A stretch of 64,000 nucleotides of DNA from an uncultured Clostridium sp. (lineage in GTDB: Bacteria > Bacillota > Clostridia > TANB77 > CAG-508), in contig CANAZY010000003.1 in NCBI GenBank assembly GCA_947365805.1, positions 28,158-92,157 on the forward strand. Direction: 5' to 3'. A program made the position numbers and the translations under genes. The notes beneath the pieces were generated by a model. That model worked only from the letters and a program-made list of their open reading frames with translations, was not told the DNA's origin and did no database searches. Shown here in pieces: positions 3,622 through 4,052 of this stretch (positions within the stretch are counted from its first letter, which is position 1; each line of letters opens with the position of its first letter).

Positions 3622-3680
3622 CCTTTCTTCAAAAGTAAAGCTTTTGTACTCTTCACTCTTCGCTTTTAACTCTTCACTTT
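3622..3680 (-). promoter_or_regulatory. conserved purine-rich leader plus SD-adjacent hairpin (copy upstream of groEL)
   Basis: RNA sense: AAAGTGAAGAGTTAAAAGCGAAGAGTGAAGAGTACAAAAGCTTTACTTTTGAAGAAAGGA. The hairpin is CAAAAG/CTTTTG. Two related copies lie at 3999-4052 and 24101-24160. Confidence 0.5.
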
Positions 3681-3709
3681 GGGCACATTTTAAGAGCTGC
3701 CCCTACATT

Positions 3710-3991
3710 TTATTCTACAACTGCTAATATATCGCTTTCTCTTACGATAATTAGTTCTTCCTCTTCGTATTTTACTTCTGTGCCAGAATATTTGCTTACT
3801 ACTACTTTATCTCCTACTTTTACATCTAATGGAATTAATTCGCCATCTTTTTTTAATCCTGGTCCTACCGCAATAACCTCTGCTATTTGTGGTTTTTCTT
3901 TACTACTTGCAGAAAGTATAATTCCACTTTTGGTTGTTTCTTCACCTTCTATCATTTTAATGACAACTCTGTCTTGTAATGGTTTTAACAT
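3710..3991 (-). CDS. groES: co-chaperonin GroES
   Basis: [45 protein letters not shown]... Start moved to the internal ATG at 3989-3991, which follows RBS GGAGGG. Confidence 0.93.
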
Positions 3992-3998
3992 AATTTTT

Positions 3999-4052
3999 CC
4001 CTCCTTCAAAATTCGAAGAATTTTGTACTCTTCATTTTTCACTCTTCACTGT
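3999..4052 (-). promoter_or_regulatory. conserved purine-rich leader plus SD-adjacent hairpin (copy upstream of groES)
   Basis: RNA sense: ACAGTGAAGAGTGAAAAATGAAGAGTACAAAATTCTTCGAATTTTGAAGGAGGG. The hairpin is CAAAATTC/GAATTTTG. Confidence 0.5.

Follow-up and report, generated by a model that had tools for sequence, protein, structure and literature searches.

A heptad and hairpin module in the groES and groEL leaders of an uncultured Clostridium as a probable member of a fast-evolving interspersed repeat system

The window analysed here, a stretch of 64,000 nucleotides from the genome of an uncultured Clostridium (1.67 Mb, 29% GC, 57 contigs; hereafter G000), carries the groES and groEL genes on its minus strand. 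A short sequence module precedes both genes, and a third copy lies upstream of a Na/Ca-exchanger-like gene on the same strand. In all three copies, three to five C-free heptads are followed by AGTAC and by an AU-rich hairpin of 6-8 bp, which ends 0-1 nt 5' of the Shine-Dalgarno sequence (SD; Table 1). A previous sequence-only reading of this DNA had described a leader sequence shared by groES and groEL, with a hairpin ending directly before the SD and separate from the CIRCE operator. These observations hold: all three copies were confirmed as described, and the module lies downstream of CIRCE. Transcripts would carry the module in their 5' UTR or in intercistronic RNA; at groES it is situated between the promoter/CIRCE region and the SD.

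Table 1. Features of the groESL region, of the third module copy in the window and of the tRNA-linked tracts elsewhere in G000 (window positions unless a contig is given).
Feature	Position	Strand	Remark
groES promoter TTGACA-17-TAAATT	4124-4096	-	From promoter scan; upstream of CIRCE
CIRCE operator TTAGCAGTC-N9-GAGTGCTAA	4068-4094	-	Separate from the repeat; kept genus-wide
groES heptads, three in tandem: AGTGAAG AGTGAAA AATGAAG	4030-4050	-	
groES junction AGTAC	4025-4029	-	Near-invariant; its C is the first hairpin base
groES hairpin CAAAATTC-TTC-GAATTTTG	4007-4025	-	8 bp, loop UUC, about -3.8 kcal/mol; directly abuts SD
groES SD AAGGAGGG	3999-4006	-	ATG at 3991-3989
REP-like GC hairpin GTAGGGGCAGC...TGCCC in the groES-groEL spacer	3681-3706	-	5' module of the 78-nt insert; second dispersed family
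groEL heptads, four: AGTGAAG AGTTAAA AGCGAAG AGTGAAG	3651-3678	-	
groEL AGTAC (3650-3646) and hairpin CAAAAG-CTTTA-CTTTTG (3646-3630)	3630-3650	-	6 bp; 7 if a C.A mismatch is counted
groEL native SD AAGAAAGGA	3621-3629	-	ATG at 3609-3607; kept in relatives without the insert
Third copy, heptads, four: GGTGAAA AGTGAAT AATGAAA AGTAAAG	24133-24160	-	
Third copy, AGTAC and hairpin CAAAATTT-TGC-AAATTTTG (24128-24110)	24110-24132	-	
Third copy, SD AAAGGAG (24109-24103) and ATG (24095-24093)	24093-24109	-	Gene for Na_Ca_ex-family membrane protein
tRNA/tmRNA-linked tracts, hairpin CTTGCC-TTAC/TTCG-GGCAAG	G000 C1:27415, C1:38104, C8:39545, C23:8333, C37:3044, C38:3568		Hairpin 2-3 nt after CCA

The suspicion that the element belongs to no known Rfam family was supported: no family was found for it, neither in the window searched at gathering score nor in the region 3500-4250 searched at E values up to 10, which returned chance-level matches far below threshold. 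The only matches at gathering score in the window were a glmS ribozyme (20083-20239, plus strand, 91 bits) and a tRNA gene (40146-40219, minus strand). In addition, groEL is split into two open reading frames (2860-3609 and 1974-2873), with an extra base at TCA CGG A (2873-2886, minus strand).

The small hairpin is kept by compensatory changes, as had been proposed from the three window copies. Across 91 parsable elements from G000 and its relatives, we identified 28 distinct stem variants (among them TTC/GAA, GC/GC, CTC/GAG, TGC/GCA, ATC/GAT, TTTG/CAAA and TTTGC/GCAAA) with a length of 7-10 bp, comprising 672 Watson-Crick and 10 G-U pairs. The loop was UUC in 43/91 elements and CUUCA in 10. 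When 31 distinct 19-nt hairpins were aligned without gaps, pairing was found in 96.8% of cells and both-sided changes in 4/8 pairs. For the percentage of paired cells, the numbers of pairs and of cells with both-sided changes, and the covariation score, the observed value was not attained in any of 500 shuffles; the count of further pair types was attained in 12/500. The stems are weak (-2 to -6 kcal/mol). Regarding the strand on which the structure acts, the G-U evidence is mixed, with 10 G-U pairs in sense and C.A mismatches in the groEL and C5 elements that correspond to G-U on the antisense strand. We also examined whether the last heptad (GAAGAGU) could instead pair with (A)YUCUUC of the 5' arm and loop; 94% of cells can do so, but with no double-sided changes and a result that does not exceed the shuffles, this pairing is unsupported.

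The heptads follow the consensus A-R-T-G-A-A-D (A1 87%, T3 82%, position 4 G/T/A, A5 90%, A6 91%, C at most 7% at any position), and folding predicts a mostly single-stranded tract. Between one and four in-register heptads, or more, were present in 92/95 elements. We considered whether their purpose is to provide stops in all frames, and all three frames are indeed stopped in 56% of heptad tracts versus 27% of composition-matched shuffles; this enrichment is nevertheless not a rule, and the three-frame stops are a by-product of the heptad unit. Downstream of the heptads, AGTAC sits 0-1 nt before the hairpin; TAC is invariant in both alignments, and the full AGTAC in one of them (alignment A1). 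The hairpin ends 0-1 nt before the purine core of the SD in 72/95 elements, a set biased by the inclusion of the SD in the search model, and in about two thirds of an unbiased sample obtained by SD-free pattern search. The leaders keep a canonical SD (AAGGAGG), with the hairpin placed between it and the heptads.

In order to follow the element beyond the window, a covariance model was built from 11 G000 copies. It scored these source copies with E = 8e-9 to 2e-14 and recovered further ones. The sequence-only reading had made its case dependent on additional copies, and these are present both in G000 and in its relatives. Word searches identified the junction GAGTACAAA together with hairpin and SD before clpP, tsf, rplJ, genes for an ABC ATPase and a DivIC-like protein, asp23 and others, and the covariance model added copies before rplF, rpsQ, rplQ, rpsD, mcsB, yebC, ybaB, spoIIIAA and ftsH. 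Overall, G000 harbours approximately 20-30 copies, about 20 of them SD-adjacent, and the downstream genes are diverse and of housekeeping type. Hairpins next to the SD are not enriched genome-wide, as they were counted at 102/1270 starts versus 97-118 at shifted controls; only the CAAAA...TTTTG family stands out. With copies at about 20 unrelated genes of G000 and up to 93 matches in one relative, the idea of a groESL-specific element had to be abandoned.

The SD-free pattern returned 22 elements in G000. About 13 of these lie in sense between co-oriented genes, solo antisense copies are absent, and the others are inverted pairs or located between convergent genes. Solo copies between co-oriented genes are therefore always sense. 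Inverted heptad pairs were found at approximately 6-8 loci, and most copies are single and in sense. Nearly all copies and most predicted genes are on the minus strand of their G000 contigs; for this reason the contigs seem to be oriented non-randomly, perhaps through an assembler effect of base composition, and we do not regard this as a biological signal. The ends of three contigs (C15:~11, C25:~16 and C47:~15) read GAAGAGCGTCGTGTAGGGAAAGAGTGTAG, which we take to be Illumina TruSeq adapter left in the assembly as contamination.

Within the S10-spc-alpha ribosomal-protein cluster (C2:12189-23790), the module is present at no fewer than four intercistronic junctions (before rpsQ, rplF, rpsD and rplQ), and two more heptad-AGTAC copies in the cluster (C2:21710 and ~C2:20161-20229) have a different 3' part, AAAATTAAGTTAGCTGTTTGAAG. 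Heptad tracts also occur 3' of 6/37 tRNA/tmRNA genes (Arg-CCU, Arg-ACG, Gln-CUG, Gly-UCC, Lys-CUU and tmRNA). Here the arrangement is CCA-AA-CTTGCC-TTAC-GGCAAG-heptads, often running into an inverted second heptad arm. A seventh copy (C32:13340-13380) is located beside a tRNA 3'-end fragment and the end of a recombinase-like open reading frame, and has the look of an att site.

The module is physically linked to a second repeat family. G000 contains many GTAGGGG...CCC hairpins, often as inverted doublets; this REP-like family, GTAGGGG(Y)CG...CG(R)CCC, occupies dozens of sites (e.g. C1:79110-79182 and C25:6357-6432) and includes REPIN-like doublets. In a relative with 93 model matches (G045), the SD-free 17-mer pattern gave 39 matches compared to 0 for the reversed control. 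Among 30 G045 elements that were read, approximately 20 lie directly next to an SD with its start codon, 8 border on a REP (TTTTG-ATGTAGGGG) and 2 form inverted pairs, and in most of the 30 a REP lies directly 5' of the heptads. The same fixed order of REP, heptads, AGTAC and AU-rich hairpin, followed by an SD or another REP, was found in G000 and repeatedly in G045.

Three genes for Y1 transposases (Y1_Tnp, PF01797) were identified in G000, one of which (C13:3390-3710) has two GTAGGGG REPs inside its reading frame. None of the three is flanked by the module, and a direct link to these IS200-like or RAYT-like genes was therefore rejected. At the groEL indel we found no target duplication of 3 nt or more (the flanks are TAA(A) and AAGAAAGG), and its two ends do not form an inverted repeat, which also led us to reject a classical MITE derived from a DDE transposase. 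Given the lack of a module-flanked transposase and of terminal repeats or a target duplication at this indel, the means of spread can only be inferred.

Next, we investigated the distribution of the element in related and distant genomes. The model matched 11/24 other genomes of the genus and, weakly, 1/16 genomes from other families, with 0 to 93 matches per genome; copy number thus varies approximately 100-fold among related species. In a sample of the order, the element was present in 10/301 genomes and 7/43 genera. Scanning the genomes of 185,579 species with the exact pattern yielded approximately 25 metagenome-assembled genomes of uncultured gut Clostridia (from goat, rabbit, mouse and human) plus two chance matches. 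Orthologous sites are sometimes common to relatives, as observed for groES, groEL, tsf, clpP, asp23, rplF, rplJ and ftsH.

At these orthologous sites, the blocks of the mosaic are gained and lost. Upstream of groES, promoter and CIRCE are constant in 27/27 genus genomes, and the SD-adjacent hairpin is present in approximately 11/27, accompanied by no heptad, a single one or 3-4. Across the genus, the spacer between groES and groEL measures 22-185 nt and its repeats differ from species to species, making this intergenic site a repeat hotspot. In a four-way alignment, the 78-nt block of REP-like GC hairpin, heptads and AU-rich hairpin found in G000 is cleanly absent from its closest relatives G018 and G024, in a comparison in which the aligned groES/groEL flanks are closely similar and other compared genes are 96-100% identical; a further genome (G023) lacks the REP but carries the heptads and the hairpin. 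Two spacers (G020, locus L073, and G015, locus L074) carry the heptads ATTAGAA and GTTAGAA and, after them, the inverted complement, so that a long hairpin would result, and five (G012, G016, G005, G002 and G009) contain an unrelated insert of approximately 60-150 nt (AAACTAGCG...GTGATAT...ATATCACATGGGAGCGG). The leader can therefore not be called conserved at groES and groEL, as had been suggested: the groEL copy is missing in the two closest relatives, and the heptads at groES vary from 0 to 4 across the genus.

A comparison of G000 and G018, whose coding DNA is 96-100% identical, revealed element identities of 0.81-1.00, with upstream flanks at 0.96-0.98 at 4/5 loci and a decayed hairpin at asp23. 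Between these near-identical genomes, the element thus changes at least as fast as its flanks. Considering the indels, the varying heptad number and an element no better kept than its flanks, the sequences indicate that it is dispensable at individual genes and under no visible purifying selection.

Several known systems resemble parts of the module. In the BIME mosaics of Enterobacteria, REPs are joined with other conserved motifs in fixed order, and the module has the same kind of composition. REP/REPIN elements are associated with RAYT transposases (Bertels and Rainey 2011, PMC3116915, PMC3337134). With REP, REPIN and BIME elements the module has in common that short extragenic palindromes occur in tens to hundreds of copies, vary between relatives, lie inside operons and at gene ends, and sometimes form inverted doublets; moreover, GTAGGGG-headed REPs physically chained to the module coexist with Y1-transposase genes in G000. 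However, the module hairpin is AU-rich, its head is AGTAC rather than GTAG, it carries a heptad array and is mostly single rather than an inverted doublet, it is placed precisely 5' of SDs in sense, and no cognate RAYT is flanked by it. The GTAGGGG REPs form a separate family in G000.

A second resemblance concerns the TAACTGA heptamer repeats of marine Beggiatoaceae, some Cyanobacteria and Bacteroidetes (MacGregor 2015, PMC4679880). In both cases, many short tandem arrays (2-6 units) of one heptamer occur per genome, mostly forward and just upstream of start codons, including those of ribosomal-protein genes, and both show a patchy phylogeny and contain stop codons; for the TAACTGA repeats, binders of the S1, Csp or CsrA type have been proposed (PMC4679880). 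The present unit, in contrast, is A-R-T-G-A-A-D and is followed by AGTAC and a covarying hairpin, with a Clostridia host and a strong canonical SD. TAACTGA arrays extend into the position expected for the ribosome-binding site, where a canonical SD is seldom present (PMC4679880), whereas the heptads described here are set off from the SD by the hairpin and do not replace it. By combining a heptad array, AGUAC and a covarying AU-rich hairpin that abuts a strong SD, the module differs from both the TAACTGA and the REP/REPIN/BIME systems, its nearest described counterparts.

The layout is also reminiscent of individual leaders. Ribosome standby sites and unstructured 5' tails, such as the CA-repeat tails of E. 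coli, and 5' stem-loops, such as those of aprE and ermC in B. subtilis, favour 30S loading and block 5'-exonucleolytic decay. Like these, the module places an unstructured tract 5' of the ribosome-binding site and a small hairpin near a strong SD; those are experimentally demonstrated leaders of single genes, whereas the module is a repeated, mobile-looking cassette known here from its sequence. CIRCE/HrcA occupies the same groES leader with a conserved inverted repeat, but CIRCE is kept in all 27 genus genomes and the module is variable and also found before genes unrelated to heat shock.

The element occurs in the leaders of groES, groEL, clpP, mcsB and ftsH, and its AU-rich hairpin would melt easily, which would fit an RNA thermometer or a heat-shock-specific groESL leader, one of the roles the sequence-only reading had considered. 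However, the SD lies outside the hairpin, and in six leaders folded at 30, 37 and 45 C it was predicted to be free throughout (unpaired 0.72-0.98 at 30 C and 0.76-0.97 at 45 C), so that none showed the SD paired in the cold and freed in the warm that characterises ROSE and fourU elements. Since the predicted exposure of the SD hardly changes between 30 and 45 C, a thermometer is unlikely, and with most carrier genes not being heat-shock genes and no groEL copy in the closest relatives, we consider this reading extremely improbable: the element is not a heat-shock-specific regulator. We judge it very improbable that the element acts at the DNA level, whether by providing an internal promoter or by serving a DNA-binding protein as an operator in which direct 7-bp repeats are combined with a palindrome. 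Direct repeats and a palindrome are indeed present, and GTGAAG-16 nt-TACAAA weakly resembles -35/-10 hexamers, but a promoter scan of the minus strand returned only the known groES promoter and none in the heptads or the groES-groEL spacer. We consequently rejected an internal promoter, there being no sigma-70-like site inside the element. In addition, the inner stem varies freely while remaining complementary, which fits a structure rather than a sequence-specific operator.

RNA-level functions deserve more consideration. The module could be a cassette for RNA processing or stability, in which an RNase Y/J-type cut in the heptads or AGUAC would uncouple the stabilities of neighbouring cistrons; possibly, the upstream REP or GC hairpin guards the 3' end of groES, rpsB or tRNA transcripts, while AU-rich hairpin and SD guard the downstream mRNA from 5'-exonucleases. 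The succession of hairpin, single-stranded purine tract, and hairpin with SD at groES-groEL, rpsB-tsf, the ribosomal-protein cluster and behind tRNAs is in line with this proposal, as are the predicted unpaired state of the heptads, the invariant AGUAC next to the hairpin and the stabilisation of Firmicute mRNAs by 5' stem-loops beside a strong ribosome-binding site. On the other hand, the hairpin is weak and has decayed at some loci (asp23), close relatives manage without the module at groEL, and trimming of tRNA 3' ends would be impeded, not aided, by a hairpin located 2 nt after CCA; we therefore regard a processing cassette as doubtful. Similarly unlikely, in our view, is a post-transcriptional regulon in which the heptads dock a multimeric or multi-domain RNA-binding protein of the S1, cold-shock-domain or KH type, with UUC as a second contact, possibly coordinating the translation of proteostasis and translation genes. 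HutP, a known binder of NAG-N4 repeats, was rejected as the heptad reader, because PF09021 is absent from 27/27 genus genomes while the B. subtilis control was positive, and no candidate binder was identified. The 7-nt period with its conserved A1, T3, A5 and A6, the recurrent UUC loop, the strict phasing to the SD and a gene set rich in groES, groEL, clpP, clpC, mcsA, mcsB, ftsH, ribosomal-protein genes, tsf and rpoC would all suit such a regulon, and a like proposal exists for the TAACTGA repeats (PMC4679880). Yet orthologous sites differ freely in whether heptads are present and in how many there are, genomes contain between 0 and 93 copies, one third of the copies are not SD-adjacent, and the element is no better kept than neutral flanks. 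It is also conceivable, at low probability, that the module is a self-spreading initiation or processing cassette that enrols a gene in a clade-specific post-transcriptional programme whenever it lands 5' of an SD. Its putative reader, a heptad-binding protein or nuclease, would then link groES, groEL, clpP, clpC, mcsAB and ftsH with genes for ribosomal proteins and translation factors.

We consider it fairly likely that the element is a module of a lineage-restricted, fast-evolving interspersed repeat system of uncultured low-GC gut Clostridia, which is tolerated in sense orientation and not specific to heat shock. In full, the mosaic starts with a stable hairpin that may be missing and is of the GTAGGGG...CCC REP type or, 3' of tRNA genes, CTTGCC-TTAC-GGCAAG; it continues with 0-5 or more C-free heptads (A-R-U-G-A-A-D) and AGUAC, and ends with a 7-10-bp AU-rich hairpin with UUC loop, followed by the gene's own SD or another REP. 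Sense copies may persist because they are harmless: base pairing between the purine tract and the purine-rich SD would not be possible, and the local hairpin would sequester the sole pyrimidine stretch (CUUC, UUUU), leaving the SD exposed. The reverse orientation, by comparison, would put anti-SD-like CUCUUCAC repeats beside the SD. Tolerance in sense only would thus follow from the sense orientation keeping the SD free. The module may in addition be modestly useful, either by offering an unstructured platform for ribosome standby or insulation or by stabilising the mRNA at its 5' end. Spread may occur through single-strand action of a Y1 transposase (RAYT/IS200-type) on hairpin DNA or through recombination between copies, with slippage then shifting the number of heptads. 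How exactly the module abuts the SD, how well AGUAC and the UUC loop are conserved, and its preference for highly expressed genes all go beyond what would be expected from simple tolerance, and could reflect a real function; alternatively, the orientation bias could result from single-strand transposition coupled to the direction of replication.

These results show that an apparently chaperone-specific leader is a genome-wide repeat, and they call for caution against over-reading motifs common to heat-shock operons. Among bacterial interspersed repeats, the module is unusual in abutting the SD with near single-nucleotide precision, in its constant sense orientation and in favouring highly expressed genes. 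If it is merely tolerated, it documents which leader sequences are compatible with a strong SD. If the cassette affects ribosome loading or mRNA processing, it would represent a natural portable ribosome-binding-site insulator, and if it is active, mobile DNA would be rewiring post-transcriptional control in uncultured gut Clostridia. Should landing 5' of an SD indeed enrol genes, the module would be a mobile cis-regulatory element building a regulon.
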